Positions 33,318 through 51,633 of a stretch of 64,000 nt of DNA are shown here, piece after piece. The translations under genes were made by a program, and so were the position numbers. Origin of the DNA: Deltaproteobacteria bacterium GWA2_38_16. GTDB lineage: Bacteria > Bdellovibrionota > JACOXK01 > 2-02-FULL-40-11. The DNA is taken from NCBI GenBank assembly GCA_001797335.1, contig MGPE01000005.1:153013-217012 (forward strand). Direction: 5' to 3'. Below the pieces are notes generated by a model. The model did no database searches. It was not told the DNA's origin and saw only the letters and a program-made list of their open reading frames with translations. The stretch's first letter is position 1. Each line of letters begins with the position of its first letter.

Positions 33318-33394
33318 GGGACCGTAGTTCAGCTGGTTAGAACGCCTGCCTGTCACGCAGGAGGTCGCGAGTTCGAGTCTCGTCGGTCCCGCCA
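33318..33394 (+). tRNA. tRNA-Asp (anticodon GTC)
   Basis: Acceptor GGGACCG/CGGTCCC, anticodon loop CTGTCAC, T-loop TTCGAGT, 3' CCA encoded. Confidence 0.85.
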
Positions 33395-33415
33395 GATAAT
33401 TTCATTCAAAAAAAA

Positions 33416-33444
33416 CGAGCTCTAGATTTCAGAGCTCGTTTTTT
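33416..33444 (+). terminator. Rho-independent terminator after tRNA-Asp
   Basis: CGAGCTCT-AGATTTC-AGAGCTCG hairpin followed by TTTTTT. Confidence 0.6.
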
Positions 33445-33538
33445 CGTGGTCAGACTTGTATACTTCGAATGTAAATGAGGTTTCGACTTTTCTTTTTTAA
33501 TACGGCCCTACTCTACGCGCTTTTTGTTTACAGGGAAT

Positions 33539-33577
33539 ATGATTTGTGTCATATTTTCAGCACATGATTTATGTCAT
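33539..33577 (+). promoter_or_regulatory. two FNR/CRP-family-like palindromic boxes upstream of nirK
   Basis: ATGATTTGTGTCAT (33539..33552) and ATGATTTATGTCAT (33564..33577), each ATGA-N6-TCAT, 25 bp apart, 25-60 bp upstream of the nirK ATG. Confidence 0.4.
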
Positions 33578-33601
33578 TTTTCTGCCATCAAGGAGGAAAT
33601 A

Positions 33602-35008
33602 ATGAAAAAAATATTTTTGATCATTATCGGTATCGGATGTTTTGGAAATCTTTTATCGTGTAAGTCATCTTTGCCTATTGAAAAAGCTGTTCTAACTTTT
33701 GCTCCAGAAGTGCCGCCGGTGATTACGCGGACATCTCCAGCAAAAGTGATTGTTGATCTAGAGGTTCAAGAAGTGGTCAATCAACTGGCCGATGGTGTTG
33801 AATATACGTTTTGGACATTTGGGGGGAAAGTTCCTGGGAAATTTATTCGAGTTCGAGAAGGAGATATCGTAGAGTTTCATTTGGCCAACCATCCTGCCAA
33901 TAAGCTTCCTCATAATATTGATCTTCATGCAGTGACAGGGCCTGGTGGGGGCGCCACCAGTTCCTTTACAGCGCCTGGACATAAATCCCAATTTACATTT
34001 ACAGCGTTAAACGCGGGTCTCTATGTATATCACTGTGCCACGGCTCCTGTAGGGATGCATGTGGCTAATGGCATGTATGGGCTTATTTATGTGCAACCCA
34101 AAAAAGCGCTGCCTAAGGTGGATCGTGAATATTATGTTATGCAAGGAGATTTTTATACCAAGGGTGTTTTTAGTGAAAAAGGGCTTCAGCCCTTTTCCAT
34201 GGAAAAGGCTATCGATGAAAAACCAAGCTATGTGGTGTTTAATGGGGCGGTGAATTCATTGGTGGGGGATAATGCACTGAAAGCCAAAGTAGGAGAAACC
34301 ATTCGTTTATTTGTGGGAAATGGGGGGCCGAATTTGGTTTCGTCATTTCATGTTATTGGAGAAATTTTTGATAAAGTGTATCAAGAAGGAGGGACTTCCA
34401 CTGTTCAGGAAAATGTTCAAACTACTTTAGTTCCCGCTGGAGGATCAGCCATTGTTGAATTTAGGATGGATGTTCCTGGAACTTTTATTTTAGTTGATCA
34501 CAGTATCTTTAGAGCATTTAATAAAGGAGCTTTGGGAATGCTTAAAGCGGAAGGGCCAGAAAATAAAGTCATTTATTCTGGAAAAGAGGTGGATGAAAAT
34601 TATATTGAGAGCCAAGCACATCCCCAAGCAGGGTTAAAATCAGAACCGTCCCCTTTAAAAGCCGGGCGGAGTGGGGCTACTATTTTTGAAAATGTATGCG
34701 CCATGTGTCATCAACAAGAAGGACAAGGCCTTTCTGGCGTATTTCCTCCTTTGGCAAAATCAGACTATCTTTCTCATTTAGCCGTTAGAGATCGAGAGAA
34801 ATTAGTATCTATTATTCTAAAAGGGTTATCGGGAAAAATTACCGTGAATGGAAAAGAGTATAATAATGTGATGACGCCTGTTTCAGGACTTTCTGATGAA
34901 GAATTAGTAACCATCTTAAATTATATTATCAGTTCCTGGGGAAATTCTGGAAAACCATTTACTTTAGAGGAAGTGAAAAAAGCGAAAGAAAAAATTGAAT
35001 CGAGATGA
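33602..35008 (+). CDS. nirK: copper-containing nitrite reductase with C-terminal cytochrome c domain
   Basis: Cupredoxin ligand motifs (HNIDLHA; [16 protein letters not shown]); C-terminal heme motif CAMCH; likely start at ATG 33602 with AGGAGG RBS (ORF track starts 33524). Confidence 0.85.
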
Positions 35009-36150
35009 AAAAAAATATTTTCAGCCATTTTTTCTTGGCTGCTATTTTCATAGAGGGGGGAACATTTACCCCCTTCTATGGTTTGAATAAAGATCAAAAA
35101 AGTGTATCCGTAAAATCTTTTCGTATAGATGATGCTCCTGTAACCAAGCAGCAATTTTTTAATCATGTCTCTAAGCGGGGGAATGTGCCGGTAACCTATG
35201 TGTCGTGGGATGATGCACAAGCGTATTGCAAGGCTCGGGGAGGCAGACTCCCCACTGTTTTTGAGTGGGAATATGTAGGCAGTGCCAGTGAGACTCAAAA
35301 AGATGCTTCGAAGGATCCAAAATTTATTCAAAAACTTTTAGAGTGGTATTCAAAGCCCGTTGATGAAGCTAAAATTCCAGAGGTTAAGCAGGGAAAACCC
35401 AATGTTTGGGGAGTGTACGACATGCATGGAGTGGTGTGGGAATGGGTCTATGATTTTAATAGTAGCTTTGTCACCGGAGATAATCGTCAGGATAAAGATA
35501 AACTCAAAGATTTGTTTTGTGGAGCAGGAGGAGAAGGTGCTCAAGACCGAATTAATTACGCAGCCTTTATGCGATATGCATTGAGAAGTAGTTTAAAAGC
35601 ATCTTATAAACTTATGAATCTAGGATTTCGGTGTGCTTATGATGAAAAAAATCAGGACGAGAATATTCAAACGTCTCTTGATTTATCTCCCTATCGCTCT
35701 CATTTTGTGGTGATCACGATGACGTATACGAGCTGCCAATCGGCTTGTCCTTTGATTATAAAAAAATTAAAAACCATTTTAAAAGCATTAGGGGGAGATA
35801 TCCAAAATATTGAATTTGTGGTGGTGACGTTTGATCCAACTATTGACACAGCTTCTCATCTTTTAGAATACCAAAAAAAACAAGGTCTTGATTTTCAAAA
35901 TTGGCATTTTTTAAGCGGTTCCGAAGAAGAAACCCGAAAGATGTCTTTATTTTTAGATATTTCTTATCAAAAAGATGCTACGACGGGGCACTTTATGCAC
36001 AGCAATAAAATTATTCTTTTAAATCCTGAGGGTCAAAAGGTAGTAACCCTAGATGGTTTGGATTCTGATATTGAGCCACTTTTAAAAGCCATGGGTAAAA
36101 CACCCAAAGCTTCTTTTTTCAAAAAACTTAAAAATTATTTTACCTTTTAA
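35005..36150 (+). CDS. NirV-like FGE-sulfatase-domain protein fused to a Sco1/SenC copper chaperone domain
   Basis: N-terminal [38 protein letters not shown] (FGE/SUMF1-like); C-terminal [10 protein letters not shown] (Sco CxxxCP) and thioredoxin-like region; ATGA overlap with nirK. Confidence 0.7.
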
Positions 36151-36625
36151 ATTGTGTATTGCTCGGTTCGTCTACGCAGGAAGAACAGCAGGGCATGGAT
36201 TTTAAAAATTTAGTGGGGCCAAACTTAAGAGCGAGAAGCATATTTTTTACAAAGATCAAAATTCCTAAAAATTGTAAAAGCCCAAAAACAAAAAAAAGAA
36301 GGTTCCAAGGAAGAGAGGAATCATAAAAAATATTTTGTAAGAGCGGTACGGTGATCATTCCCATCATTCCAATATTAGCCAGCCATAAGTGAAGCCTTTG
36401 ATAATGATCGGGGACAAGAGGACTTGATGCAAAGCGGGGGATGACATGATACGCCAGACCAAAAATCATCATCGAAATCCACCCAATGGCCATCGTATGG
36501 GCATGGGGAAAATGAATGATTGTTTTCCAAGTAGGAAAAGAAGCCATTACTGTGCCCATAAGGGCACCTACCAATAAATAAAGAAGACTTGAAATGACAA
36601 ATAATCTAGAATAGGGAGACATCAT
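36140..36625 (-). CDS. hypothetical His-rich integral membrane protein
   Basis: About 4 predicted TM helices; conserved-looking His in HFPHAH and AYHVIPRF. Confidence 0.4.
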   Translation of the reverse strand: MMSPYSRLFVISSLLYLLVGALMGTVMASFPTWKTIIHFPHAHTMAIGWISMMIFGLAYHVIPRFASSPLVPDHYQRLHLWLANIGMMGMITVPLLQNIFYDSSLPWNLLFFVFGLLQFLGILIFVKNMLLALKFGPTKFLKSMPCCSSCVDEPSNTQFKR

Positions 36626-36661
36626 TAAGTTTTATTTTTAACATAGGGAGTCCATAAAAAC

Positions 36662-37402
36662 ATGATCAATGTCATATTTTTGCCAGTTTTTTTCTTTGTG
36701 GCTGCTCTTATTTACTCAATGGTAGGGCATGCAGGTGCTTCAGCCTATTTGGCCATCATGGCTCTTTTTGGAATATCAACAGAGGTAATGAAACCCGTAG
36801 CCTTGGTTTTAAATATTTTAGTGGCAGCGATTGCCAGTTTTAAATTTTATCGATCAGGGCATTTTTCATGGTCTTTATTTTGGCCTTTTGCATTGACCTC
36901 CATTCCTTTTTCTTTTTTAGGAGGATTTTTAATACTGTCTCCTCTATTTTATAAGCCCATCGTTGGGATTATTCTCTTATATGCGGCGTATCATCTCTTT
37001 TTCTTTTCTGCGCTCTCCGCTTCTTTAGAAATAGCCCAACCCTTACGACGGTGGTTACTATTGTTTTTGGGATCAGGCATTGGATTTTTGTCTGGGTTAA
37101 TTGGGGTAGGGGGAGGGATTTTTTTAAGTCCCCTTCTTTTATGGAGGAGGTGGGCTACGGTTCGGCAAACAGCAGCGATATCTTCTCTTTTTATTCTCGT
37201 GAATTCTATTTCCGGTTTAGGGGGGCATCTGTTTCGGGTGAATTCTTTGCCTTCTCAATTGCCGCTGTGGTTAGTGAGCGTTGCTCTGGGAGGATGGATA
37301 GGAGCAGAATATGGAAGCCGTCATCTGTCCCCCCTTTTTTTAAAGCGATGTTTGGCTTTGGTTTTATTAATAGCAGGACTTAAATGCCTCTTTTTTGTCT
37401 AA
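36662..37402 (+). CDS. TauE/SafE-family anion permease
   Basis: Duplicated 4-TM units with glycine-rich GLIGVGGGIFLSPLL motif. Confidence 0.7.
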   Translation: MINVIFLPVFFFVAALIYSMVGHAGASAYLAIMALFGISTEVMKPVALVLNILVAAIASFKFYRSGHFSWSLFWPFALTSIPFSFLGGFLILSPLFYKPIVGIILLYAAYHLFFFSALSASLEIAQPLRRWLLLFLGSGIGFLSGLIGVGGGIFLSPLLLWRRWATVRQTAAISSLFILVNSISGLGGHLFRVNSLPSQLPLWLVSVALGGWIGAEYGSRHLSPLFLKRCLALVLLIAGLKCLFFV

Positions 37403-37405
37403 ATC

Positions 37406-37417
37406 TGATCAGTATCA
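37406..37417 (+). promoter_or_regulatory. FNR-like box (TGAT-N4-ATCA) upstream of the molybdoenzyme alpha gene
   Basis: cTGATcagtATCAt directly after the TauE stop codon, about 65 bp upstream of the likely alpha-subunit start. Confidence 0.4.
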
Positions 37418-37435
37418 TTTTTATCTCTACCGAAA

Positions 37436-40400
37436 TTGTGTAAATCTGCCACTTTAAGGCTTAAAAAATATGGAGGAAATATGACATATATCAGCCGAAG
37501 AAAGTTTTTAAAAGGTTTGGGGGCAGTAGGGACGTTATTAACCTCAGAAACTGTCTTTGGATCTCCTCTTCGATATTTTAAGCCTACCCATGTAGAAAAT
37601 CCCTTAGCATTTTATCCCAACCGGGATTGGGAAAAAGTATATCGAAATATTTTTAAACCTGATTCCACGTTTGTATTTTTGTGTGCTCCCAATGATACCC
37701 ATAACTGTCTTTTAAAAGCGTATGTCAAAAATAATGTGGCGGTTCGAATAGGTCCTACTTATGGATATGGAAAAGCACAAGATCTCTATGGGAATCAATC
37801 GTCTCATCGGTGGGATCCCAGGCTCTGTCAAAAAGGATTGGGATTAGTACGTAGGGTCTATGGGGATCGTCGTTTAAAATCCTCAATGATTCGACAAGGA
37901 TTTAAACAATGGGTAGAGGCTGGATTTCCCAGAGATCCCAAAACTGGAAAGCCGGATTTAAAATATTTTAATCGGGGACGAGATAAGTGGCTCAGAATTT
38001 CTTGGGATGAAGCATTTCAATTATCTGCCAAAGCTTTTTATAATATTGCACAAACCTATTCAGGCAAAGAAGGAGAAAAACGTTTAAAACTTCAAGGTTA
38101 TGATTCTGCGATGATTGAAGCGTTAGAAGGAGCAGGAACACAAACAATTAAAATCAGAGGGGGAATGGCATTTTTAGGATCTACACGAATTTTTGGAATG
38201 TATCGATTTGCCAATATGCTTGCGCTTTTAGATAGCAAAATTCGAGGAGTTGGGCCAGATCACGCCGTAGGAGCCAGAGGGTGGGATAGTTATAGTTGGC
38301 ATACAGATCTTCCACCAGGGCATCCCATGGTGACGGGTACTCAAACCAATGATTTTGATTTATTTGCCGTAGAACATTCAAAGCTTGCTATTGCCTGGGG
38401 GATGAATTGGATTACGACAAAAATGCCAGATTCCCATTGGTTGACGGAAGCCAGGCTCAAGGGAACTAAAACCGTGTCCATCACGGTTGAATACAGTGCA
38501 ACGGCTTCTAAAACCGATGACGTGATTGTTATTCGTCCAGGAACAGATCCAGCCTTTGCATTGGGATTGGCCCAAGTGATTATATCTGAAAAACTCTATG
38601 ATTTGGAGTTTGTATCCAAAAATACGGATCTTCCTTTTCTTATTCGATTAGATACCTTGGAGCCTCTTCGTCCCCAAGATATTATTCCGGGATATGTAGA
38701 GCCTCCTTTAAAAAATATTGTCTTTCTTAAAAAAGGAGAAAAACCCCCGGCAACCTCTACCCATCGCATTCAATATGCCACGGAAGAAATGAAGGATTCT
38801 TTTAAACCGTTTGTGATTGTTGATCAAAAAACCAAAAAATTAACACCGGTGACGAGAGACTCGTTCAGATCGGCAGATTTGTTTTCCAGTCGAACGGTGA
38901 AACTTTTAAATGGGAAGGAAATAAAAGTACAAACCGTGTTTGGGTTAATGAGAGACTATGTAAATCAAAATTTTACGCCTAAACAAACCGAACTTATTAC
39001 TGGTGCTCCTGAAAAAGCAATTATCTTATTAGCCAAACAAATTGCGGCTAATCCAGAAAAAACACTTTTTGTGACGGGTATGGGTCCAAACCAATTTTTT
39101 AATTCTGATTTAAAAGATCGGGCCATCTTTTTTGTGGCAGCCTTAACGCGAAATATTGGATTTCCAGGGGGTAATGTAGGAAGTTATGCTGGAAATTATA
39201 GAGCAGCATTGATTGGGGGAGAGCCCGTATTTGCTGCCGAAGATCCCTTTCATGTGCAACTCGATCCCAAAGGTAAGGTCATTGTTAAAAAATATACGCA
39301 TTATGAATCACTTCATTACTTTAATTATGGTGAGAGGCCGCTTAGGGGAGGGAAAACATTATTTACAGGGAAAAGTCATCTTCCAACTCCTACCAAAGCC
39401 ATGTGGCTCAATAATTCTAACTCTGTCATCGGAAATATTAAGTGGCATTTTGATGTGGTGAATAACACGCTTCCAAAGCTAGAGTTTATTGCATTTGCAG
39501 ATTGGTGGTGGACGGGTTCTTGTGAGTATGCTGATATTGTTTTTGGCGTCGACAGTTGGGCGGAGTTTAAAGTGCCTGATATGTGTGCTTCCTGTACCAA
39601 TCCTTTCCTTCATGTTTATCCCAGAACTCCTCTTCCCAGAATTTTTGATACGAAATCTGATATCGAAGTGATTGCAGGAGTATCAAAAGCGTTAGCCGAA
39701 GTAACCAATGATGCTCGAATGGTTGACATGTGGAAATTTGTTCATGAAGGGAATGTGCAAACATATCTTCAACGGATTATGGATCACTCTTTTACGCTCA
39801 AAGGGTATGATATTGATGATCTAGAGAAAAAAGCCCAAGAAGGAATTCCAACGCTCATGAATAATCGAACCTATCCTAGAATCTCTTCTTTTGAGCAGGC
39901 CACAGAAAAAGAACTTTGGTTTACGAAATCAGGTCGATTGGAATTTTATCGTCCTGAAAAAGAATTTATTGAGCATGGTGAAAATATGGTGGTGTATAGA
40001 GAACCTGTTGATTCAACGCCCTATGAACCCAATGTCATTGTAGCACATCCTCATGTGGCCATTCGTCCTAAAGGGCCCGAAGCACATGGGATGCAGTCGA
40101 GTGATCTTTCGTGTGAAAGTCGCCAAGTGCGAAATGTGATCAAAACGCCAGAAGAAGTAGTCAAAACAGAGCATCCTCTGCGTTCCAAAAAATTTACTCA
40201 CATTTATCATACGCCCAAATATCGACATGGAGCACACACGACTCCTGTTGATACTGATTTTACGGGAGTATGGTTTGGCCCTTTTGGTGATATTTATCGG
40301 CACGACAAACGTCAAGCCTCCGTGACCGAAGGATATGTAGATATAAATCCTTTAGATGCCAAAGAACTGGGGATTGAAGATGGGGATTATGTGCATATAG

Positions 40401-40924
40401 ATGCTGATCCCCAAGATCGTCCTTATAGAGGATGGAAAAAAGGGACTGAGTCTTATCATGTGGGGAGACTCCTTCTCAGGGCTCGTTATTATCCAGGGAC
40501 TCCCAGGGGAGTAGCTCGGACTTGGCACAATATGTATGGAGCTACTTTTGGAAGTGTGAAAGCTCATGAAACCCGGCCCGATGGACTCGCTAAAAATCCA
40601 GAGACAAATTACCAATCCATGTATCGCTATGGCAGTCATCAAAGTGCCACCCGGGCATGGCTACGGCCAACACTTATGACAGAAACATTGGTGAGAAAAG
40701 AAATGTTTGGAAATCAAATGGGCAAAGGATTTGCTGCAGATATTCATTGTCCCGTCGGAGCGCCTCGGGAAGCGTTTGTTAAAATTTCTAAAGCTGAGAA
40801 CGGGGGATTGGGAGGAAAAGGAAAGTGGGGGCCGGCACAGCTTGGATTTCGTCCCACCTATGAAAATGTAGCGATGAAGGAATATCTTAAAGGAAAATTT
40901 ATGAAACGAAAGAAGGAGATGTAA
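37436..40924 (+). CDS. Tat-exported molybdopterin oxidoreductase alpha subunit, type II DMSO reductase family (nitrite oxidoreductase NxrA-like / periplasmic NarG-like)
   Basis: Twin-arginine signal SRRKFLKG (probable start at Met16, about 37481); FS0 motif C-x3-D-x3-C...C followed by YVKNN (cf. NarG H-x3-C-x3-C..YVKNG); about 1150 aa. Confidence 0.8.
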
Positions 40925-40927
40925 AGC

Positions 40928-42058
40928 ATGGCAACAGTAAAAAATTGGCAACTGGATCGCCAAATGGATTATCCCTATGAAGAGCACCGACCTAAAAAAC
41001 AATGGGCCATTGTTTTTGATTTAAATAAATGCATTGGATGTCAAACCTGTTCCTTGGCCTGTAAAACCACTTGGACCAGTGGCAAAGGCCAAGAATATAT
41101 GTTTTGGAATAATGTGGAAACAAAACCTTGGGGCAGCTATCCCCTGGCGTGGGATGTCCGAGTACTTGAAAAATTGGGATATCAACACTGGGATAAAAAT
41201 AAACCCTATTCCGGAAAAACCGTTTTTGAAGCTGCTGATCCAGCAGAAAAAGCGGTTCATTTTAATCCTCAAGATGAAGATTGGATGTATCCAAACCGAG
41301 GAGAAGATGATTGTACAGGAAATGTCTCGGGTGGAAAATATTTGACATTACCCCACGACAATTGGTTTTTTTATCTTCCCAGAACCTGTGCACATTGTAC
41401 CTATCCTGCCTGTTTAGCAGCCTGCCCCAGAAAAGCGATTTATAAACGAGAAGAAGATGGTATTGTTCTGATCGATCAATCACGATGCAAAGGATACCAA
41501 GAATGTGTCAGGGCCTGTCCCTATAAAAAGTCTATGTATAATCCCTATACCCGAGTGAGTGAAAAATGTGTGGGGTGTTATCCGGCGGTAGAAGAGGGAA
41601 AGCAACCCATGTGTGTTCAAAATTGCATTGGGAAAATTCGTATTATGGGATTTATTAATCCTCCCTGGAATGCCAGAGAAGATAATCCTGTTGATTATCT
41701 GGTTCACAAAAAAGAATTAGCACTCCCGTATTATCCTCAGTTGGGACTTGAGCCGAATATTTATTATGTTCCTCCCATTCATGCCAATCGGGAGTATTTA
41801 ATTCAGATGTTTGGCCCAAAAGTAGAGGAGGTCATTGAAAATTATAAAAAAATTAAAAATGATCCTATTACCCAGGGACTTTTAGTGCTGATGGGATCTA
41901 CGGATAATATTATTCATCGTTTTAAAGTTTCTGAGGGATCAGCATATGCTTTTGATGAAAAAGGGGATCAAATTGTGAGAGTTCCAGTCACAGAGCCTTT
42001 ATTTATTCGAACCCCTTGGGATGAAAAACTGGGCGTTATTCGAAATAATACGCCCTAA
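40928..42058 (+). CDS. iron-sulfur beta subunit of the type II DMSOR-family enzyme (NxrB/NarH-like)
   Basis: Four ferredoxin-type Cys clusters (CIGCQTCSLAC; CAHCTYPACLAACP; CKGYQECVRACP; CVGCY...C); no signal peptide; immediately follows the alpha gene. Confidence 0.8.
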   Translation: MATVKNWQLDRQMDYPYEEHRPKKQWAIVFDLNKCIGCQTCSLACKTTWTSGKGQEYMFWNNVETKPWGSYPLAWDVRVLEKLGYQHWDKNKPYSGKTVFEAADPAEKAVHFNPQDEDWMYPNRGEDDCTGNVSGGKYLTLPHDNWFFYLPRTCAHCTYPACLAACPRKAIYKREEDGIVLIDQSRCKGYQECVRACPYKKSMYNPYTRVSEKCVGCYPAVEEGKQPMCVQNCIGKIRIMGFINPPWNAREDNPVDYLVHKKELALPYYPQLGLEPNIYYVPPIHANREYLIQMFGPKVEEVIENYKKIKNDPITQGLLVLMGSTDNIIHRFKVSEGSAYAFDEKGDQIVRVPVTEPLFIRTPWDEKLGVIRNNTP

Positions 42059-42962
42059 GAAAGAAGGTGTGAGGGGAATGATGAAGAAAATTTATGCTTT
42101 AATGGTTGTAAGTTATCTTTTATGGGGCCAGGGACTTTGGGCCGAAGGACTTATTGCAAAATATGTTAAAGAGGATCTCTCTAAACTAAATCTTGAAGCA
42201 CTGTTTTGGAAAGAGGTTACTCCAGAGACCATTCAGCTGATAGCTCAGCCCATGGTGGCCCCACGTCCTCAAAAAACATTGACGGAAAAACTTTGGGTAC
42301 AAGTGGTTCATAATGGAGAGTGGATGGCGTTTCGATTTAAATGGAAAGACAAAGAGAAGAGCGAAGCAGGACCTTTGGGTAAATTTTCGGATGCAGTGGC
42401 CATTCAATTTCCAGTGAAAGAAAAAGAAGTGCCCCCGATTTTTATGGGAGCCAAGGATAGCCCCGTTCATATTTTGCATTGGAGAGCACAGTATCAAAAA
42501 GACAAAGAAAAAGGATTCCAAACGATGAAAGATATTTATCCCAATATGAATATGGATATGTATCCTTTAGAATTTGCCAATCAATATTCTCATGATGAGA
42601 TGTTGAAAAAAATCACTGAGGAACAAAGAGAAGTGTTTGTGTCTGGAAAATCTGCTGGAAACCCTCAATCATTTCAAAAAATAAAAGGGGTGGATGAGAT
42701 GATGGCCGAAGGTTTTGGTTCCAGTTCTGTCATTGAAAATACGAGAGCAGAAGCTCAGGGGATATGGCAAAAAAAAGGAAAAGAAGGAGAATGGGTAGTG
42801 CAAATTTCTCGGCCCTTAGCTTTAGAAGGGGGATCTATCTTGAAAGCAGGGCAAAAAAGTTTTATGGCCTTTGCTGTGTGGCAGGGCGGAGAAGGGGAAG
42901 TGGGATGTCGAAAATCTGTGACGATGACCTGGGTACCCTTAATAATTGAGGATAAAAAATGA
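42021..42962 (+). CDS. periplasmic gamma subunit (heme b, EbdC/NxrC-like)
   Basis: Sec signal MMKKIYALMVVSYLLWGQGLWAEG (probable start at internal Met about 42078); position and size fit a gamma subunit. Confidence 0.6.
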   Translation: MKNWALFEIIRPKKEGVRGMMKKIYALMVVSYLLWGQGLWAEGLIAKYVKEDLSKLNLEALFWKEVTPETIQLIAQPMVAPRPQKTLTEKLWVQVVHNGEWMAFRFKWKDKEKSEAGPLGKFSDAVAIQFPVKEKEVPPIFMGAKDSPVHILHWRAQYQKDKEKGFQTMKDIYPNMNMDMYPLEFANQYSHDEMLKKITEEQREVFVSGKSAGNPQSFQKIKGVDEMMAEGFGSSSVIENTRAEAQGIWQKKGKEGEWVVQISRPLALEGGSILKAGQKSFMAFAVWQGGEGEVGCRKSVTMTWVPLIIEDKK

Positions 42963-43624
42963 TGCCTAAACCTACGGATTTTATCGTTGCTTCTTTTTTG
43001 ACCGCATATCCAGATAACTATTTTTGCGATAGCTTAAAGGACATCTTAAATTGTCAAAAACCCAAAGGTATTGATTCTTTCTATTTGGAGCTGAAATCTT
43101 ATATAGAAACACCTCAAAAACTAAATAATTTGCGTTCTGATTATATTGATATTTTTGATCATGGAAAAGAAATCAACTCTCCGTATGAAACGTCTTATGG
43201 GCCTTATAAGGGGATGAATAAGACCATCGATCTTTCAGATTTGATGGGATTTTACAAAGCGTTTGGATTTGAATTGGGAGTGGATGATAAAAGGCGAGAT
43301 ATGGCAGATCATGTTTCTGTTGAGCTTGAATTTTATGCGCTGTTGCTCATGAAAGAAGCCTATTTGAAAAAACACAATGATAAAGAAGGAACTGAAATTG
43401 TTTTAGATGCGTGTAAGAAATTTTTAAAAGATCATTTAGGAAGATTTATTTCAGCTATTGGCAATAGGCCCGCTGTTTTACAACATTCTTTTTATTCGAA
43501 AGTATTTGAGTGGAGTGCTGTTCTTGTTGCCGAAGAATGCAAAAGATTAAATGTTACGCCTACGCCTTTGTCTTACGATTCTCTGATATCCGAATCTGAA
43601 GATTTTAACTGTCGTTTTAAATAA
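42959..43624 (+). CDS. TorD/NarJ-family redox enzyme maturation chaperone
   Basis: 221-aa cytoplasmic protein, fourth gene of the operon; DHVSVELEFYALL resembles TorD/NarJ-family helices. Confidence 0.55.
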   Translation: MMPKPTDFIVASFLTAYPDNYFCDSLKDILNCQKPKGIDSFYLELKSYIETPQKLNNLRSDYIDIFDHGKEINSPYETSYGPYKGMNKTIDLSDLMGFYKAFGFELGVDDKRRDMADHVSVELEFYALLLMKEAYLKKHNDKEGTEIVLDACKKFLKDHLGRFISAIGNRPAVLQHSFYSKVFEWSAVLVAEECKRLNVTPTPLSYDSLISESEDFNCRFK

Positions 43625-45027
43625 TTGGCTAGGCGTAGGGCGAATGCCATAATCGTAATTTGAGGATTGACGCCTAAAGAGGATGGAACCACAGAACCAT
43701 CTGCAATAAAAATTCGGTCAGAACCATAGACTTTTAAATTTTCATCGACGACTCTTTTAATTCCGCAGCTTCCTAACGGATGAAATCCCATGGCGTAGAG
43801 TTGAGAGGGTTTTAAACTTCCAAAATCATATTCTTTTAAATCATTAAAATCTAAAAATTCATTTTGAGATCCACTAAAAGGGAGCACTACTTTTTGTGCG
43901 CCTGCTTTTAAATAGGCAAGTCCAATGAATCGGGCTCCTTCGACTAAATCTAAAAAATCTTTAGGATGCAAAGGGTAGTGAATAAAAAGTCCTAGCCCAG
44001 GATAGTGTCGAACCGTTCCACGACCTCGATCTTTTACAAGGACTCCAAACGAGGCCACATGGTCATACTGTAAAAGCCAGTCATCCAAACTTTTTCCATC
44101 CAAAGGCAAAACAAGGCTGGCCAGTTGAGGGGGAGTAAAAACCCCTTCAAAAGAAAGATAGGGAAAACTGGGGTGTTTAAATCCAATAGCTTGAGGAACA
44201 CCTTTACTACTATATAAAGGATTTTTAAACTGGGCTAAAACTTTAACAGCTGGATGGACGGTGAGTCCATTGCCTGCTTTTTTCCACTCTGTTCCTAATT
44301 TATTTTTACGAATCAGGATAGGAGTTGAGAGACTTCCCGCAGAGATAATAAGTTTTTTACATTCTACCGTTAAAGATTTTTTTTGAGCGTCTTTACAAAA
44401 GAGCAAAACTTTATTTTTTTCTTCTTGGATATGAGTAACGGTAGTTTGGGTAAGAAGGGTGCCGCCTTTTTTTAAAAAAAGAGGAAGAATGGCAACATCG
44501 GTGGATTGCTTGGCTTCGTTCGGGCAGACAAAGGGACATCGTCCGGATCCATCGCAGTTTTTTTCATCTCGATTGAGAGGGGAAGGAGAAGTAAACCCCA
44601 GAGCTTCTACTCCGTTTCGAAAGAGTTTATTGCCAATAGAAATTTTTTCTTCGGGAACCGGATGAATCGAAAGCAATGTTTTTAGTGTTTCAAAATGAGG
44701 TTCTAGCTCAGAGCGTTCAATGGATATGTGAAGTTGGTCTTTCCATTCTTGAATGACAGACTCTGGAGTTTCAAAACACGTTCCAGAATTAATCGTGGTG
44801 GTTCCTCCCACCACTTCTCCCGTTGGGATTCCAATAAATCCTTTTCCAAGACCTCCGATAAATCCCTGATCTCTATAGTAGTGTTGAAGAGAAAAGAGAG
44901 GATCTTGATTTCTTTTGGCCCAATCCCCTTTTTCAATGATGGCAATGTTTCCTAGGGTATTTTGTAATCCATAGGCCGCCAACGCTCCCCCTGCACCGGA
45001 TCCAATAATGCATACATCAAATTTCAT
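43573..45027 (-). CDS. GMC-family FAD-dependent oxidoreductase
   Basis: N-terminal FAD motif DVCIIGSGAGGALAA; C-terminal GMC signature region. Confidence 0.75.
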   Translation of the reverse strand: MKFDVCIIGSGAGGALAAYGLQNTLGNIAIIEKGDWAKRNQDPLFSLQHYYRDQGFIGGLGKGFIGIPTGEVVGGTTTINSGTCFETPESVIQEWKDQLHISIERSELEPHFETLKTLLSIHPVPEEKISIGNKLFRNGVEALGFTSPSPLNRDEKNCDGSGRCPFVCPNEAKQSTDVAILPLFLKKGGTLLTQTTVTHIQEEKNKVLLFCKDAQKKSLTVECKKLIISAGSLSTPILIRKNKLGTEWKKAGNGLTVHPAVKVLAQFKNPLYSSKGVPQAIGFKHPSFPYLSFEGVFTPPQLASLVLPLDGKSLDDWLLQYDHVASFGVLVKDRGRGTVRHYPGLGLFIHYPLHPKDFLDLVEGARFIGLAYLKAGAQKVVLPFSGSQNEFLDFNDLKEYDFGSLKPSQLYAMGFHPLGSCGIKRVVDENLKVYGSDRIFIADGSVVPSSLGVNPQITIMAFALRLANYLKRQLKSSDSDIRES

Positions 45028-45334: not shown

Positions 45335-46246
45335 TCACAGAAGGATATCCCCAGAAGGTTCTTCTCGGGTGACCCACTCTAATGCGGCACTTTCTGAAAC
45401 CAATGATTTTTTTTCTTTGGTTTTGTGGTCTATAAGAGAGAGTTCCAGAGTGGCTAATTTTGAATTGTGGCAATAAAGATGAGAATTATCTGTATCTGTA
45501 TAGGTAACAACGGCTATTTTTTGAGGGATGCTTTGAACAGTACCTTTGATCGATATATCTTTGTGATGAGCTGAGAAATGCCAAAAGGTATATCCAAATC
45601 GTGTGTGGGTTTTAAAAAGATCAATCGCTGAATTAAAAAAATACTCTTTTCCATTATATTTTAAATATAAAGACGTTAAGGGTTTTAGATGGTGGTGGAT
45701 ACGAGCTGAGAGTCCTTCAAAAATAACGCCTTCTTCTGGAAAGGTATTACAATGAGCCCAGGTCCATTCTTGTGCTTGTTTTTTTCCCCACACATGCCCC
45801 ATCATTCCCCGCACATTATAGAGAGAGTGACTTTTTCCATCGATGGTGAGTGTCCCATTAAAGTGAGCATTCGAAGCAACTGTTTTTGTGGAAGACTGCG
45901 AGAGATGCAAAAATTTAAAGAGAAAAGGAACCGGATCAAAACTTCCTCCTTTATTCTCATAGATAAAGTTCCACTGGAGGCGGTCTAAAGAGCCTTGTGT
46001 TTTTGTATCATTTAAAAGCCCAGAGGGGAGTCTTACGTCTTGAGTAAAGGAAAGATCAGAAAGGGCATAAACTTTTTTTTGAGCAATGATTTTTTCGGGA
46101 TGAAAATAAATCGCCCACAGAGCTGCTTCTTTTGTTTTTCCATTGAGAAGGGTGTAGCGAAACCAAAAGGCTTCTTTAGGGGAAATAACACACTTTCCAT
46201 ACCAGATTTCATAAAAAGGGGATTGACTATGAAAATAAATGTCCAT
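45335..46246 (-). CDS. hypothetical protein (303 aa)
   Basis: Long ORF, aromatic/His-rich; no motif I can assign. Confidence 0.4.
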   Translation of the reverse strand: MDIYFHSQSPFYEIWYGKCVISPKEAFWFRYTLLNGKTKEAALWAIYFHPEKIIAQKKVYALSDLSFTQDVRLPSGLLNDTKTQGSLDRLQWNFIYENKGGSFDPVPFLFKFLHLSQSSTKTVASNAHFNGTLTIDGKSHSLYNVRGMMGHVWGKKQAQEWTWAHCNTFPEEGVIFEGLSARIHHHLKPLTSLYLKYNGKEYFFNSAIDLFKTHTRFGYTFWHFSAHHKDISIKGTVQSIPQKIAVVTYTDTDNSHLYCHNSKLATLELSLIDHKTKEKKSLVSESAALEWVTREEPSGDILL

Positions 46247-46770: not shown

Positions 46771-47325
46771 ATGATTATGAGGACATTTTACGTCAGTGTT
46801 CTTGAGTTAGCACTTTTGGAGAAGCTTATCGTTTTTGGGCGCTCTTATACACATGAGTTGTCTAAAAATCTAACTATTTCGCCTGCCCATGTGAATCGAC
46901 TGTGCCATGCGCTGAGAAAGCGGCAGATATTGAATGTTTCTTCTCAGGAGAATCGAAAATTTTTTGAGTTGAATTATCAGTGTTTGTTAACAAGAGAATT
47001 GCTACGGTTTATAACCGTAATTAAAATAAAAAATTCTAAATATTTTCGAAAATTAGGAGAAATATGCCCTTTTGGAGTTTTTGGAAGTTTTTCGGAAGGG
47101 ATGCAAACAAAAGAAAGCGATTTGGATCTATGGGTATTTTCTGACCGTTCTTTTGAAAAAAAAATCCGTTTAATTATAAATGATATTGAAAAAGAATGGG
47201 AACATATCATTAATATTGTTTATCTGGATAAAAATAAGCTTGAAATAATGAAAAAAAATGATCCAGAATTTTATTATCGCCTTCGATCCCAATCGCTTAC
47301 AGAAAGGGGAGATATTTTTGAATAA
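46771..47325 (+). CDS. minimal nucleotidyltransferase (MNT) with N-terminal wHTH; MntA-like antitoxin
   Basis: GVFGSFSEGMQTKESDLDLWVF (GS...DxD NTase motif); followed by an overlapping HEPN gene. Confidence 0.7.
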   Translation: MIMRTFYVSVLELALLEKLIVFGRSYTHELSKNLTISPAHVNRLCHALRKRQILNVSSQENRKFFELNYQCLLTRELLRFITVIKIKNSKYFRKLGEICPFGVFGSFSEGMQTKESDLDLWVFSDRSFEKKIRLIINDIEKEWEHIINIVYLDKNKLEIMKKNDPEFYYRLRSQSLTERGDIFE

Positions 47326-47746
47326 ACTTAAAGATTGTTTTGAAAAGAAGTTTTTAGTCAGAACGCGCCCTGAACCTGAATTAGCTAAAAAATCTTTAAA
47401 ACGTGGTTTAGCAACGATTGAGGATGTACCCAAAGCTTTAAAAGCAGATTTAGATGAGCTGGCTGAACAAAGGCTGTATCAAAGTGTGTTCCATGGAGTA
47501 AAAGCATTACTCTATAAAGATGGCATTAAAGAAAGATCACATATTTGCGTCAGTTTATATTTTAAAGAAACGTATCAGAAGTTTTTTTCTAAAGATCTTT
47601 TAACCTTATTGGATCGATTAAGGGATGTTCGCCATGAATCTCAATATGGTCTTGATGCCGTTGCCATGAATTCAGAACAAATTCAAAATTGGTTAGCAGA
47701 GGCAGAACAACTTTTAAAAGTAATTTCTCAGCTTTTAAAATCGTAA
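47319..47746 (+). CDS. HEPN-domain protein, HepT-like toxin (probable TTG start)
   Basis: R-x4-HxxQY motif RDVRHESQYG; ORF track opens at 47258 but overlaps the MNT gene, so the start is inferred. Confidence 0.6.
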
Positions 47747-47768: not shown

Positions 47769-48958
47769 TTATCAGCAGTGTCGTTAATGCCTGATCCCTT
47801 GGTATAATTAATATCGTATCCTAATTTGAGGAGCATATTATCAGAGCATCGATATCCCCCACCAAAAGAATATCGGGAGTAAACGTTGGCCGTAACACTA
47901 TTTAAAGAAGCGGTGGTAGAAGCCCCTCTTAGTTTAATGGTACTAACGCGACCGGCCAGATAAAAATGAGACAAGACGTTCCATACATCCGGTAAATTCC
48001 ATAATGATTCTACAAAACCAAAATGAGCTTGTCTTTTTTGAGCATTCCCGCCGGTAGATCCATCTTTAAAAGCACCCAAAGAAAATCTAAAAAATGCCTG
48101 GCTATCAGAATATGCAGGAGGATTTAAAGGTTTTTTGCCTTTGCCTAAATCATATCTAAAATCTATTTCTGCCACCTGCCTTGTCCAATTTGTTGCACCG
48201 CTAGCAGGAGCTGTAATTCCTGCAATAGACATGTCTGCTGAAGATGCTTTTAATTTTCCAGAATGGTAGTAACTGGTGCTGATAAAGAGAGGATCTATCG
48301 GAGTGTAAAATAATCTTCCTAAAAAAGATTTTCCTTGGCCAGAATCCGATCCTACAACACTATTTCCATTTCCGACGGCTACAACCCATATTTTCCCTGA
48401 TAGCTCTATCCCCTCATCGGTGACGCCTACGTTTGCAGCTGAGTTAGAAGGAAGGATGCCTTCAACGACGTTATTGGTTTGGGTTTCTTCTCCAAAGGGC
48501 TGTTTAAATCTTCCCAGTCTGCCGCTTACATTAAACCACGTATTTCTTAAAGCGGGAATAAAATCTTTGGCTTGTAAAAATAAATAATCGACTAAAGGAG
48601 TGTTGTTCCCCCCATTATTTAAATTAAATCGAAAAGTAGCAGAATTGAAATCATCTGCCTGGAACATAAACACCAATTTTGCTTCAGGTACTTCAAAAGA
48701 ACCACTTCTAAAGCTAGAGGTTTGTCCTTGGGAATTATAAAAAGCACTTGCAGCTCTTCCGCTGAGCTTTAATTTAGAAAGCAGATTTGAAAGATCAACT
48801 TTGGGAGATTCTTCCCCATAGGCAAATGGGGATATGAATAAAGAAATTAAAATAATTGTTATGATGGAGTGTGGCTTCATAGAGTAATCCTTTCTTCTTT
48901 CCAGATGGGAGCTTGTTTTTTTAATTCGGCAATGACGTATTCGCAGGCTTTGAAACAC
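47735..48958 (-). CDS. outer-membrane beta-barrel porin-like protein
   Basis: Signal peptide MKPHSIITIILISLFISPFAYG (likely true start about 48880); alternating amphipathic strands; C-terminal SLRF with terminal Phe. Confidence 0.55.
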   Translation of the reverse strand: MFQSLRIRHCRIKKTSSHLERRKDYSMKPHSIITIILISLFISPFAYGEESPKVDLSNLLSKLKLSGRAASAFYNSQGQTSSFRSGSFEVPEAKLVFMFQADDFNSATFRFNLNNGGNNTPLVDYLFLQAKDFIPALRNTWFNVSGRLGRFKQPFGEETQTNNVVEGILPSNSAANVGVTDEGIELSGKIWVVAVGNGNSVVGSDSGQGKSFLGRLFYTPIDPLFISTSYYHSGKLKASSADMSIAGITAPASGATNWTRQVAEIDFRYDLGKGKKPLNPPAYSDSQAFFRFSLGAFKDGSTGGNAQKRQAHFGFVESLWNLPDVWNVLSHFYLAGRVSTIKLRGASTTASLNSVTANVYSRYSFGGGYRCSDNMLLKLGYDINYTKGSGINDTADNLLSLVASLRF

Positions 48959-49269
48959 TCTTTTCGATGTTCACCGGTAACGCCCATCCAAACCGCAATT
49001 TCTCCGAGTTGTAAGGTTCCTGTTCGATGATGAACATGAATGTCTAAAACAGAAAATTCTTTTTTGGCTTTATCAATTATTTTTTTTATTTCTTTAATCG
49101 CCATGGGCGTATAAGCTTCGTAATGGAGTTCTTTTACTTTTTTTCCTTTGTTCCATTGCCGAACCCAGCCTTCAAAGCTGACATAAGCGCCTGCCATGAT
49201 ATTTTTTCTTAATTTTTTAGAATGTATTGTGGGATTTAAAGGTTTGGTCCAAATTTTAACGATGGACAT
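48877..49269 (-). CDS. moaE: molybdopterin synthase catalytic subunit
   Basis: GAYVSFEGWVR...VHHRTGTLQLGE...APIWKEE. Confidence 0.85.
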   Translation of the reverse strand: MSIVKIWTKPLNPTIHSKKLRKNIMAGAYVSFEGWVRQWNKGKKVKELHYEAYTPMAIKEIKKIIDKAKKEFSVLDIHVHHRTGTLQLGEIAVWMGVTGEHRKECFKACEYVIAELKKQAPIWKEERITL

Positions 49270-49275
49270 AGTGTT

Positions 49276-49542
49276 TTATCCTCCTGCAACCGGAGGAATA
49301 AAACACACGGTATCCCCTTCTTTAAGAGAGGTATTAAAATGAGTATATGCTTCATTAATGGCAGCGGAAAGATAGGGAGTATCCAAAAAATGAGGATATT
49401 TTTTCTTAAGTTCCTGATGGAGTTCTAAAAGAGTGCTTTGATTGGGAAGGTCTATTTTTTCTTCTTTTTTTTGAGTGATGGTTTTTAAATGAGCAAAATA
49501 TAATACATTTACTTTCATGAGCTTTCGATTAACATGGGACAA
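49276..49542 (-). CDS. moaD: molybdopterin synthase sulfur-carrier subunit
   Basis: Small ubiquitin-like protein ending in Gly-Gly (PPVAGG); adjacent to moaE. Confidence 0.8.
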   Translation of the reverse strand: MSHVNRKLMKVNVLYFAHLKTITQKKEEKIDLPNQSTLLELHQELKKKYPHFLDTPYLSAAINEAYTHFNTSLKEGDTVCFIPPVAGG

Positions 49543-49554
49543 TTCTTTAAGAGT

Positions 49555-49568
49555 ATGACATAGATCAT
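49555..49568 (+). promoter_or_regulatory. FNR-like palindrome (ATGA-N6-TCAT) in the moaD / mobA-moaA divergent promoter
   Basis: ATGACATAGATCAT between divergent Moco genes; same architecture as the nirK boxes. Confidence 0.35.
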
Positions 49569-49611
49569 ATTTTTACCCAAAAGTCTATATAGAATACCTT
49601 TTTGTTTCAAG

Positions 49612-51165
49612 ATGAGCCATCATATAACATTAGCTATTTTAGTGGGGGGGGCTTCTCGTCGAATGGGGACTTCTCAAGACAAAGGGCTTTTATCTGTCCA
49701 TGGGGAGGCTTTAGTTTATCGTCTCATTAGAAAACTTTCTTTTTTATTTCAAGAAATCTTAATTATTTGTTCTTCGGAAACTCAAAAACAAAAATATGAT
49801 TTCGTGCTCGGAATGACACCTCAGATTATTGTGGATGAAAGTGGGAGTGATCGAGCGGCGTATTATGGACTGTGTGCAGCGCTTAAACAGAGTTCCACAG
49901 AAAAAGTGTTGGTGATTCCGGTAGATGCTCAAGGGGTGGATCCAGGTGTTATTAAAAAACTTCTATTGTCTCCCTCATTTCCTGTTGCCTATGAAAATAC
50001 ACCTTTCCCATCGGTGTGGCTCAAACAACATTTATCTTTTGTCATTCCGAGCACGAAGTGCGAGGAATCCCTAAGTATTTTAGATCTTTTGAAAAAACTT
50101 TCTACGACCTGGATACGTCCCACAGAGTGTGAAGACATACTTTTAAAAATGAATTTAAATACGAGAGAAGATGTTCGAAACTATTTTGGAGAGCCTCTGT
50201 GCGATTCTTGGGGGAGACAATTAAATTACTTAAGACTTTCTCTAACTGAATCGTGCAACATGGCATGCCAATATTGCTTGCCCAAAGGTTTTCATCAATC
50301 AACCCATGAACAGATGCTGACTCAAACCGCCCAGGTTATTTTAAAAGCGTTTCGAAAGTTAGGGTTTGAAAAAGTGCGTTTTACTGGCGGTGAGCCTACG
50401 CTTCATCCGGGACTTTTGTATCTTATTTCGGATGCTCGGTCCTTGGGATACGAAACTATTTCTCTCACTACCAATGGAAGTTTTATTCAAGATCTTACGT
50501 CTTTAATAGAGGCTGGGCTTACCCATATCAATATCAGTTTAGATACCCTAGATCCTACGACATTTCAAAAACTTACAGGGAGTCATTATCTATCTAAAAT
50601 TTTGGGTCTTATTGATGAGGCCTTAGAGAAGGGATTAAATGTAAAATTGAATACGGTTCTTCTTCGGGAGATTAATTTAAATCACATAGAACCATTACTC
50701 CATTGGGCGAAAGATCGCCCCTTAACCCTTCGGTTTATTGAACTTATGCCAATTCAAAATCACACAGAGTTTTTTAACAGAAATTTTGTTTCAAATACCG
50801 AAATTCAGTCTTTGGTTCGATCGTTGGGGTATGCGCCTATCTGTCATCCCCGACTTGATCGGGGATCCATGGAACCTTTAGGCCCCGCGGTTTTGTGGTC
50901 TCATCCAGAGTTTTTGGCCAAAGTAGGTTTTATCAGTCCTTGGTCGTGTAATTTCTGTGATCGCTGCAATCGATTGCGGGTGACTGCCAGAGCACATCTT
51001 CGTTTATGTTTATTTGGAAAAGAAGAGATAAAACTTCCGGCAGAACAAGGAGATGAAGTGGTGAGTCAATTTATTCGATCGGTTCTTCATCAAAAGCCCC
51101 TCTCGCATGATTTAGAAAAAGGGGATAGAGGAAGTTTAAGTTATTTTAAAGTAGTGGGAGGATAA
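49612..51165 (+). CDS. moaA: fused MobA-like molybdenum cofactor guanylyltransferase / MoaA GTP 3',8-cyclase (radical SAM)
   Basis: N-terminal AILVGGASRRMGTSQDKGLL (MobA motif); C-terminal CNMACQYC (CxxxCxxC) and auxiliary cluster cysteines CNFCDRCNR...C. Confidence 0.8.
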   Translation: MSHHITLAILVGGASRRMGTSQDKGLLSVHGEALVYRLIRKLSFLFQEILIICSSETQKQKYDFVLGMTPQIIVDESGSDRAAYYGLCAALKQSSTEKVLVIPVDAQGVDPGVIKKLLLSPSFPVAYENTPFPSVWLKQHLSFVIPSTKCEESLSILDLLKKLSTTWIRPTECEDILLKMNLNTREDVRNYFGEPLCDSWGRQLNYLRLSLTESCNMACQYCLPKGFHQSTHEQMLTQTAQVILKAFRKLGFEKVRFTGGEPTLHPGLLYLISDARSLGYETISLTTNGSFIQDLTSLIEAGLTHINISLDTLDPTTFQKLTGSHYLSKILGLIDEALEKGLNVKLNTVLLREINLNHIEPLLHWAKDRPLTLRFIELMPIQNHTEFFNRNFVSNTEIQSLVRSLGYAPICHPRLDRGSMEPLGPAVLWSHPEFLAKVGFISPWSCNFCDRCNRLRVTARAHLRLCLFGKEEIKLPAEQGDEVVSQFIRSVLHQKPLSHDLEKGDRGSLSYFKVVGG

Positions 51166-51168
51166 AAA

Positions 51169-51633
51169 ATGGGAGATTTTACTCATTTAAAAAAGGGAAA
51201 AGCCGTGATGGTGGATGTGACACAAAAAACTCCATCTGAGAGGATTGCAAAAAGTAAAGCTCATGTACAAACAGGATCTATCAATCTTAAAAAAGAATTA
51301 TCTCAAAAAGCACAGCAAGAATTGGCCTTAACTATTCGACTTTCGGCGATTCAAGCGGCTAAAAAAACATCTGAACTTATTCCTCTATGTCATCCTTTGT
51401 CTTTAAGTTTTGTAGAGTGTGAGGTGGAATTTAAGGAAAATAAAATTTTAATAATCTGTACGGCTAAAACAAAAAATACAACGGGGGTTGAAATGGAAGC
51501 TATGGTGGGAGCCTCGATCGGAGCATTAACGGCCTATGACATGATTAAGTCCAAGTGTCGTGATACATCGATTGAAAAAATTGAGTTAGTCTATAAAGAA
51601 GGAGGAAAATCAGGCGTATGGAAAAGAACATAA
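51169..51633 (+). CDS. moaC: cyclic pyranopterin monophosphate synthase
   Basis: 154 aa; conserved MoaC core (GVEMEAMVGASIGALTAYDM). Confidence 0.85.
   Translation: MGDFTHLKKGKAVMVDVTQKTPSERIAKSKAHVQTGSINLKKELSQKAQQELALTIRLSAIQAAKKTSELIPLCHPLSLSFVECEVEFKENKILIICTAKTKNTTGVEMEAMVGASIGALTAYDMIKSKCRDTSIEKIELVYKEGGKSGVWKRT

Follow-up and report, generated by a model that had tools for sequence, protein, structure and literature searches.

Do the palindromic boxes that precede the nirK, molybdoenzyme and Moco genes of this locus belong to one regulon, and which factor would read them? The original prediction, which was based on four such boxes, had answered with oxygen- or NO-responsive co-regulation by an FNR-family protein encoded nearby. 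In the present study, we examined the whole 64-kb stretch of DNA that contains these genes (hereafter, the window) together with loci from other genomes and metagenomes, which are designated by L numbers.

The first of the genes concerned, nirK (33602-35008, + strand), encodes a copper nitrite reductase that matched TIGR02376 with 354 bits, above the cut-off, and that carries a C-terminal cytochrome c domain (Cytochrom_C) and a lipoprotein signal peptide. Its ATG at 33602 is preceded by the ribosome-binding site AAGGAGG at 33590, and its stop codon is overlapped by the start of a gene for an FGE-sulfatase/SCO1-SenC fusion (35005-36150, +; PF03781 and PF02630), which is co-operonic with nirK and probably serves as a NirK accessory or copper-delivery protein. 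On the 5' side, a tRNA gene lies at 33318-33391, and a perfect hairpin that includes a T-run, aaaaaaacgagctctagatttcagagctcgttttttc, comes after it at 33411-33446, about 100 bp 5' of the nirK boxes; this arrangement isolates the nirK promoter region from upstream transcription. Downstream of the fusion gene lie a gene for a COX1-like membrane protein of 161 aa (36140-36625, -), with a partial match to PF00115, and, divergent from it, tauE (36662-37402, +; PF01925), which encodes a TauE/SafE-family membrane transporter. The COX1-like proteins are small (136-161 aa) and resemble a fragment of haem-copper oxidase subunit I. In L083, the homologous gene (9481-9891, -) heads an nrfH-nrfA operon that is divergent from an FNR-like regulator gene, and a box lies 43-50 bp before the start of the COX1-like gene in both the window and L083.

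The NxrA-type molybdoenzyme operon (37481-43624, +) comprises the genes for alpha (37481-40924, with a twin-arginine signal), the iron-sulfur subunit beta (40928-42058), haem-b gamma (within 42021-42962) and a chaperone (42959-43624), as in type II DMSO-reductase enzymes, whose subunit families were matched. As the alpha sequence also matched Kuenenia NxrA (7B04) over its full length with 918 bits, the operon encodes a periplasmic Nar/Nxr-type enzyme. The closest relatives of alpha are found in Bdellovibrionota metagenome-assembled genomes (MAGs; 70-78% identity). Alpha sequences with 59-78% identity occur in MAGs labelled Bdellovibrionota, Myxococcota, Sericytochromatia, Acidobacteriota, Nitrospinota, Fibrobacteria and others, a range of phyla that suggests a broad horizontal spread of the periplasmic Nar/Nxr-type enzyme in non-nitrifiers. 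Most NXR loci of Bdellovibrionota have two conserved genes directly 5' of alpha (for example, at 2131-3398 in L005, 2535-3646 in L022 and 9089-9961 in L070), one encoding 263-290 aa and the other 107-132 aa with an RREFF twin-arginine-like N-terminus; a Pfam search of this pair gave no match for either gene. The pair is absent from the window, and tauE holds its place.

Between the NXR cluster and the moa genes, we found genes for a GMC oxidoreductase (43573-45027, -) and a weakly tocopherol-cyclase-like protein (45335-46246, -), and a toxin-antitoxin-like nucleotidyltransferase/HEPN pair (46771-47746). The Moco genes are moaE and moaD (48877-49542, -; labelled by homology, the equivalents in L081 being called MoaE and ThiS) and a divergent operon of a mobA-moaA fusion, moaC, moaB, moeA and moeB (ThiF/rhodanese; 49612-54414, +), which was assigned from the translations and from Pfam matches in the syntenic L081. 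The next operon starts with a gene for a YbgC/4HBT-type thioesterase (54486-54938, +) and continues with the gene for an FNR-like regulator of the CRP/FNR family (54975-55652, +), an order that is kept in L081, L082 and L084. When the whole window was searched against Rfam at the gathering thresholds, with a view to a Moco riboswitch or another RNA element 5' of the moa or NXR operons, two tRNAs were the only matches.

Seven copies of the box, with the consensus tATGAy-N4-rTCATa, are present in the 64-kb window, all of them intergenic or at a gene boundary. The four sites of the original prediction are among them. Two precede nirK, namely the distal box ATGATTTGTGTCAT (= tATGATTTGTGTCATa; 33539-33552) and the proximal box ATGATTTATGTCAT (= cATGATTTATGTCATt; 33564-33577), whose centres are 25 bp apart, the proximal one being 31.5 bp 5' of the ATG. 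The third, tCTGATCAGTATCATt (37405-37418, with the core TGATCAGTATCA at 37406-37417), is located between tauE and alpha, 69.5 bp 5' of the alpha ATG (37481), and the fourth, ATGACATAGATCAT (= tATGACATAGATCATa; 49555-49568), lies in the divergent promoter of moaD (-) and mobA-moaA (+). Three sites are new: cATGATCAATGTCATa (36662-36675), which covers the tauE start codon and is 43.5 bp 5' of the divergent COX1-like ATG; aGTGACATAGGTCATa (54437-54450), 42.5 bp 5' of the thioesterase ATG; and tATGATTTGAATCATa (54930-54943), which covers the thioesterase stop codon, 38.5 bp 5' of the regulator ATG, and is likely to be an autoregulatory site. The outer base of all seven boxes is A, C or G, never T, on the left and T, never A, on the right. 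Four boxes share the 3' flank TCATATTT(T) (33549-33557, 36672-36681, 49565-49573 and 54447-54454), always on the + strand side and towards the downstream gene; T-rich flanks are also found 3' of boxes in L081 and L083, and the right half-site with its preceding TG resembles an extended -10 element.

The boxes are strongly enriched outside genes. Matches to the strict pattern ATGATNNNNGTCAT numbered four in the window (0.21 expected), and those to the relaxed pattern TGAYN4RTCA numbered 14 (4.3 expected in the whole window). Seven of the relaxed matches fell in 4.0 kb of intergenic DNA (counted with 14-bp margins; the intergenic share of the window is 5.6%), where 0.28 were expected, and this number was reached by none of 1000 dinucleotide shuffles. 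For the other loci, the comparison of coding with non-coding DNA was confined to those below 60% GC, because greedy ORF calling is unreliable above that value; the densities in this comparison were 0.47 against 0.16 hits per kb. We also scanned the window with a position matrix made from 35 sites, all from other loci or genomes and none from the window. The top eight matches were all intergenic or at gene boundaries, DNA that makes up about 6% of the window: the moa box at 49555 (20.9), the distal nirK box at 33539 (17.5), and those at 54930 (16.1), 36662 (15.1), 37405 (12.9), 33564 (12.5), 54437 (11.5) and 37481 (11.1). The first match inside a coding region ranked ninth, and every match scoring 9.8 and below lay within coding regions. 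The original prediction had named a similar frequency of the motif inside coding regions as an outcome that would tell against it; in these 64 kb, the frequencies are not similar, and the check thus speaks for the prediction. The last of the eight, ATGACATATATCAG (37481-37494), consists of the alpha start codon and the first codons, and we left it ambiguous as an eighth site because coding constraint could account for it. The alpha gene opens with ATGACATATATCA in the window (37481-37494) and with ATGACAGATATCA in L001 (1310-1323); this start encodes the Met-Thr-x-Ile of the twin-arginine signal peptide, and the box-like arrangement is thus seen in L001 as well.

Could the palindromes be chance AT-rich sequences or promoter elements, such as the -10-like TGTCATATT, and not transcription-factor sites at all? 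The genome, like the window, has a GC content of 38%, the right half of the box with its T-rich flank looks like an extended -10 element, and the high-scoring match at 37481 is the start codon region of alpha, but the enrichment over dinucleotide shuffles is strong, and, as described below, the same palindrome precedes both nirK and NXR genes even in genomes with a GC content of 68-72% and cannot be an effect of composition there, the boxes are conserved at orthologous promoters while the spacers diverge, and the box type co-varies with the regulator helix. We therefore regard this explanation as extremely improbable.

The window contains a single CRP/FNR gene (54954-55652), in the place where an FNR-like regulator with an N-terminal Cys cluster had been predicted. 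Its ORF opens with a GTG at 54954; the true start is likely to be the ATG at 54975, because the 225-aa orthologues start there. The protein belongs to the CRP/FNR superfamily, matching PF00027 with 82 bits and PF13545 with 54 bits, both above the cut-off, and its full-length matches in the PDB were FNR, CRP, DNR and NtcA. Numbered from the ATG at 54975, its cysteines are C9, C12, C21 and C111, and the predicted N-terminal Cys cluster is indeed present as the motif C-x2-C-x8-C. C9, C12 and C111 align with C20, C23 and C122 of FNR; the column of FNR C29 is occupied by Ser, and a Cys (C21) follows three residues later. The recognition helix is ETVIR (residues 193-197; E--IR). Orthologues from Bdellovibrionota, with 53-70% identity, and numerous proteins from Bacteroidota, with about 40%, make up the family of this regulator. 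When 91 family members were aligned, Cys occupied the positions of FNR C20, C23 and C122 in 85, 87 and 91 of them, respectively, and Ser occupied that of C29 in 78, with a Cys 3-4 residues further on; the Cys pattern as a whole is kept in 64-91 of the 91. Glu-209 (FNR numbering) is found in all 91 members and Arg-213 in 90, whereas the position of Ser-212 is Ile in 89.

The best NCBIfam model for the window protein was Fnr (NF008365), with a score of 91.4 bits, which is below the cut-off of 228. FNR in the strict sense senses O2 with a [4Fe-4S] cluster that is ligated by C20, C23, C29 and C122 of the E. coli protein and whose lability towards oxygen governs dimerisation and DNA binding. It has the helix E--SR (Glu-209, Ser-212, Arg-213) and the box TTGAT-N4-ATCAA (PMC4505428); the window protein has ETVIR instead and is associated, at the level of sequence, with ATGAy-N4-rTCAT boxes. 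DNR and NnrR are defined by a haem-based, NO-dependent activation of nir/nor promoters and by the absence of an N-terminal Cys cluster, which the window protein possesses. Judged by these features, the regulator is FNR-like and no orthologue of FNR.

In syntenic genomes of Bdellovibrionota, boxes are found again at the same promoters. In L081 and L082, where the regulator is 70% identical and the moa-thioesterase-regulator gene order is the same, boxes are found in the moaD/mobA-moaA spacer, 5' of the thioesterase gene and 5' of the regulator gene, and more boxes precede the genes for PFOR and an ELFV dehydrogenase. When the moa spacers of the window and L081 were aligned, the box was the best-conserved block, and the rest had diverged. 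The thioesterase box of L081, tCTGACGTAGATCATt, is located 42.5 bp 5' of the ATG, exactly as in the window; since the two boxes were not in register in a MAFFT alignment of the thioesterase upstream spacers, their correspondence rests on this equal distance from the start codon. A box stands immediately 5' of the regulator gene in L081, L083, L084, L085, L167 and L168. That of L083 lies between the regulator gene and the divergent COX1-like-nrfH-nrfA operon, and other boxes in this locus precede a MOT1-moa operon and the HPF gene. L001, the closest relative with respect to alpha, has a full box 94 bp 5' of alpha and a 58% identical regulator encoded at the end of the cluster. Full boxes precede alpha and several neighbouring genes in L073 and L075, which come from another phylum and have a regulator with 38-39% identity, and the variant CTGAy..rTCAT, as at the window alpha gene, precedes the molybdoenzyme operon in L022, L024, L035 and L058. 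In the Bacteroidota homologues, the regulator gene adjoins cbb3 oxidase clusters, with ATGAy-N4-rTCAT boxes 5' of ccoS/ccoNO and of the regulator gene. Among the other loci, no fewer than 10 different CRP/FNR genes have boxes next to them. The box was absent from the related NXR loci L027, L047, L052 and L070. The closest nirK loci, L086 and L087 (NirK 71% identical), as well as L070, had half-sites and no full box, so that the closest relatives gave no sign of a conserved nirK box.

Five boxes had their centre 41.5-43.5 bp before a start codon (54437-54486 and 36625-36675 in the window; 4570-4620 and 9468-9517 in L081; 10688-10736 in L083), as one would expect of class II sites provided that the mRNAs have no leader or almost none.

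A comparison of nirK promoters from many organisms separated the boxes into two kinds. The TGA-N6-TCA palindromes upstream of 80 metagenomic nirK homologues fell into two discrete classes, canonical cTTGAy-N4-rTCAAg and tATGAy-N4-rTCATa. The latter was found upstream of nirK in about 13 loci of 68-71% GC and thus cannot be a composition effect. We then read the recognition helix of every CRP/FNR gene from all fetched loci and compared it with the boxes in about 30 loci. The loci with an E--IR regulator had 33 A-type and 6 T-type boxes, and those with an E--SR regulator had 0 and 26, respectively (Fisher p = 9e-13; 2e-10 without near-duplicate loci). The metagenomic contig L157 encodes both regulator types, each with its own box type (809-1665 and 5150-5920): the E--SR gene and TTGATTCAAATCAA adjoin nirK, and the E--IR gene and ATGATCCAGATCAT adjoin an NnrS-like gene.

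These counts bear on the idea that a canonical E--SR FNR or DNR, encoded elsewhere in the genome, reads the window boxes as ordinary FNR/DNR sites. The TGA-N6-TCA core is indeed common to TTGAT-N4-ATCAA (PMC4505428). However, all seven boxes are without the left outer T and have a right outer T rather than A; the two TTGAy-N4-rTCAA matches of the window are both coding, none being intergenic; and A-type boxes accounted for 0 of the 26 boxes with E--SR regulators. We consider such a reader very unlikely. The co-regulation that had been proposed is supported as that of a CRP/FNR regulon, in view of the recurrent boxes and their covariation with the helix, although the canonical FNR box has to be replaced by tATGAy-N4-rTCATa. 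The sites show the general hallmarks of a regulon in that they accumulate 5' of genes, are retained at orthologous promoters and are associated with a factor. Because the boxes recur at syntenic promoters, adjoin CRP/FNR genes and co-vary with the recognition helix, we see support for a regulon in which the operon of the regulator itself would be joined with nirK, the Moco genes and the molybdoenzyme operon. We consider it quite probable that the boxes are the operator sites of a variant class of CRP/FNR regulators, with the protein encoded at 54975-55652 as the cognate factor or one of the cognate factors.

The words "one of" are needed for the following reason. Cys-less E--IR regulators, which are DNR/NnrR-like, also adjoin ATGA-type boxes, directly beside nirK or the NXR operon, in L005, L006, L028, L029, L050, L061 and L088; therefore, the box alone does not identify the paralogue that binds it. 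A second, NO-responsive paralogue encoded outside the window may share the nirK boxes. In a cascade of two tiers, such a Cys-less E--IR paralogue would be the main reader of the nirK boxes and perhaps also of the NXR box, and the Fe-S regulator of the window would act on this paralogue as well as on the Moco genes and on its own expression, mirroring the ANR-to-DNR and FnrL-to-NnrR cascades of classical denitrifiers. Besides the seven loci above, this possibility gains from the fact that nirK and nirS are DNR/NnrR targets in classical denitrifiers (PMC1274295) and from the pairing of the nirK boxes, which could serve two factors; against it, no such Cys-less gene is present in the 64-kb window, sequence does not tell the boxes of one regulator type from those of the other, and the window regulator clusters with its apparent targets. 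We thus think a cascade rather unlikely, and it would be compatible with the explanation preferred here, not exclusive of it.

The direction of control at nirK depends on where the promoter is placed. A sigma-70-like match, TTTACA-17-(TG)CATATT (33527-33555), overlaps the distal nirK box, although such matches were no more frequent than by chance (1 found, 0.7 expected). On this placement, the distal box would fall within the -35/-10 spacer, and the proximal box would cover about +2 to +15. Alternatively, TGtCATTTT (33572-33580), taken as an extended -10 element, puts the distal box at exactly -41.5. We thus put forward two hypotheses: the distal box activates from -41.5, and the right half of the proximal box supplies the extended -10 element; or both boxes overlap the sigma-70-like promoter and repress. 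As the proximal box is too near the ATG for an activating class II site and the promoter match overlaps the distal box, nirK could be repressed. FNR itself represses some promoters, such as those of ndh and fnr, via sites in the core promoter. The boxes would then be repressor operators over the core promoter and transcription start, through which the regulator shuts off or caps nirK, a reading that fits the sigma-70-like match and the 31.5 bp between the proximal box centre and the ATG. We judge it to be distinctly unlikely, since the promoter match is no better than chance, the extended -10 element at 33572-33580 would give the distal box the class II activating position, and the known systems activate nirK under low oxygen or NO.

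Around the boxes in general, consensus sigma-70 scans gave matches no better than those in shuffled sequences. At alpha, mobA-moaA and the thioesterase gene, -10-like hexamers (TGtGTAAAT at 37437-45, TAGAAT at 49590-95 and GATAAT/TAATAA at 54471-78, respectively) are found 27.5-29.5 bp from the box centre, which is weak evidence in DNA of 38% GC. This distance is close to the spacing expected at class II FNR promoters.

Returning to the preferred explanation, that of a variant CRP/FNR regulon, we infer the following mechanism. Under low oxygen, the regulator would acquire an iron-sulfur cluster on C9, C12, C21 and C111; a dimer would then form and bind the 14-16 bp palindrome tATGAy-N4-rTCATa, presumably as an activator rather than a repressor. 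As in FNR, the recognition helix would read the TGA core with its invariant Glu and Arg, and the Ile in place of FNR Ser-212 would correspond to the A in place of T at the outermost position of the half-site. Spiro, Guest and Busby (1990), who interconverted CRP and FNR, reportedly found that Ser-212 reads this outermost T; the contact of Ile with A would thus be a coherent counterpart. Five units would be co-ordinated: the NxrA-type operon, here in the sense of nitrate reductase/nitrite oxidoreductase; NirK with its copper-delivery partner; the COX1-like protein; both Moco operons; and the thioesterase-regulator operon, by autoregulation. The regulator probably senses oxygen, and the target set (nitrate/nitrite reduction, Moco, PFOR, nrfHA and cbb3 oxidase) is typical of low-oxygen regulons.

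Comparison with known systems places this regulator close to FNR of E. coli, and likewise to Aliivibrio fischeri FNR (PDB 5E44/5CVR) and Pseudomonas ANR. The common features are the two-domain CRP/FNR architecture, the N-terminal Cys cluster and a central Cys aligned to C20, C23 and C122, the helix Glu and Arg, the palindromic TGA-N6-TCA core with its 14-bp geometry, and a site at the regulator's own gene together with anaerobic respiratory reductases and Moco genes as targets, which in the window are predicted ones. The differences are an identity of about 25-30%, the third Cys, which is shifted by 3 residues (C-x2-C-x8-C), the helix E--IR instead of E--SR, and the box ATGAy-N4-rTCAT instead of TTGAT-N4-ATCAA. 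DNR/NnrR proteins control nirK/nirS and nor via FNR-like palindromes (PMC1274295), and the Cys-less E--IR relatives beside nirK and NXR operons resemble them; however, the canonical DNR/NnrR proteins have E--SR and bind TTGA-type boxes, and the window protein differs further in its Cys cluster. The Bacteroidota members of the family, which adjoin fixI-ccoS-ccoNOP-ccoGH with boxes 5' of ccoS/ccoNO, are reminiscent of FixK2/FnrN, but FixK2 is without an Fe-S cluster and binds TTGA-N6-TCAA, whereas the proteins considered here carry the Cys motif and their boxes have another outer base. As in the HcpR/HcpR2/NssR variants described by Rodionov et al. in 2005 (PMC1274295), helix substitutions co-vary with bases of the palindrome; the correlations reported in that work link CRP positions 180 and 181 to bases 3 and 6, whereas that found here joins CRP 184 (FNR 212) to the outermost base of the 5-mer half-site.

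The ATGAy-type box is not mentioned in Rodionov et al. 2005 (PMC1274295) or in a paper on the CRP/FNR meta-regulon of anammox reactors. A literature search for the ATGAT/ATGAC-N4 box strings, of incomplete coverage, returned only papers on the canonical TTGAT box, and the literature on Bdellovibrionota nitrogen genes and on Flavobacterium cbb3 regulation contained nothing on the ATGAy motif. The recognition code of this regulator and its site, ATGAT instead of TTGAT, is thus apparently undescribed. A wider proposal, which with all of its parts taken together we find plausible but somewhat short of probable, is that E--IR/ATGAy-N4-rTCAT forms a distinct, undescribed CRP/FNR specificity class. 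This parallel code would coexist in one genome with E--SR/TTGAT without cross-talk, as in L157; it would be used by both Fe-S (oxygen) and Cys-less (probably NO) sensors; it would control nirK, NXR-type nitrate reductases, nrfHA, Moco synthesis and cbb3 oxidases in Bdellovibrionota, Bacteroidota, Myxococcota, Acidobacteriota and Sericytochromatia; and a single residue, Ile at the position of FNR Ser-212, would set the preference for the outermost base.

In kind, this is a classical low-oxygen CRP/FNR regulon and not surprising as such; the apparent novelty lies in the variant recognition code and in how widely it occurs. The pairing of Ser-to-Ile with T-to-A would add a one-residue rule to the recognition code of the CRP/FNR family. 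Predictions of low-oxygen and denitrification regulons, from genomes as well as metagenomes, routinely rely on FNR, DNR and NnrR matrices that were derived from TTGAT boxes. Should ATGAT boxes be in use throughout a large clade, such scans would miss regulons in Bdellovibrionota, Bacteroidota and many soil Myxococcota and Acidobacteriota, and the missed targets would include nirK and the NXR-type nitrate reductase genes, which are relevant to models of the nitrogen cycle. As for the organism itself, its group is known mostly as aerobic predators, and the predicted regulon points to an organism capable of facultative nitrate and nitrite respiration.
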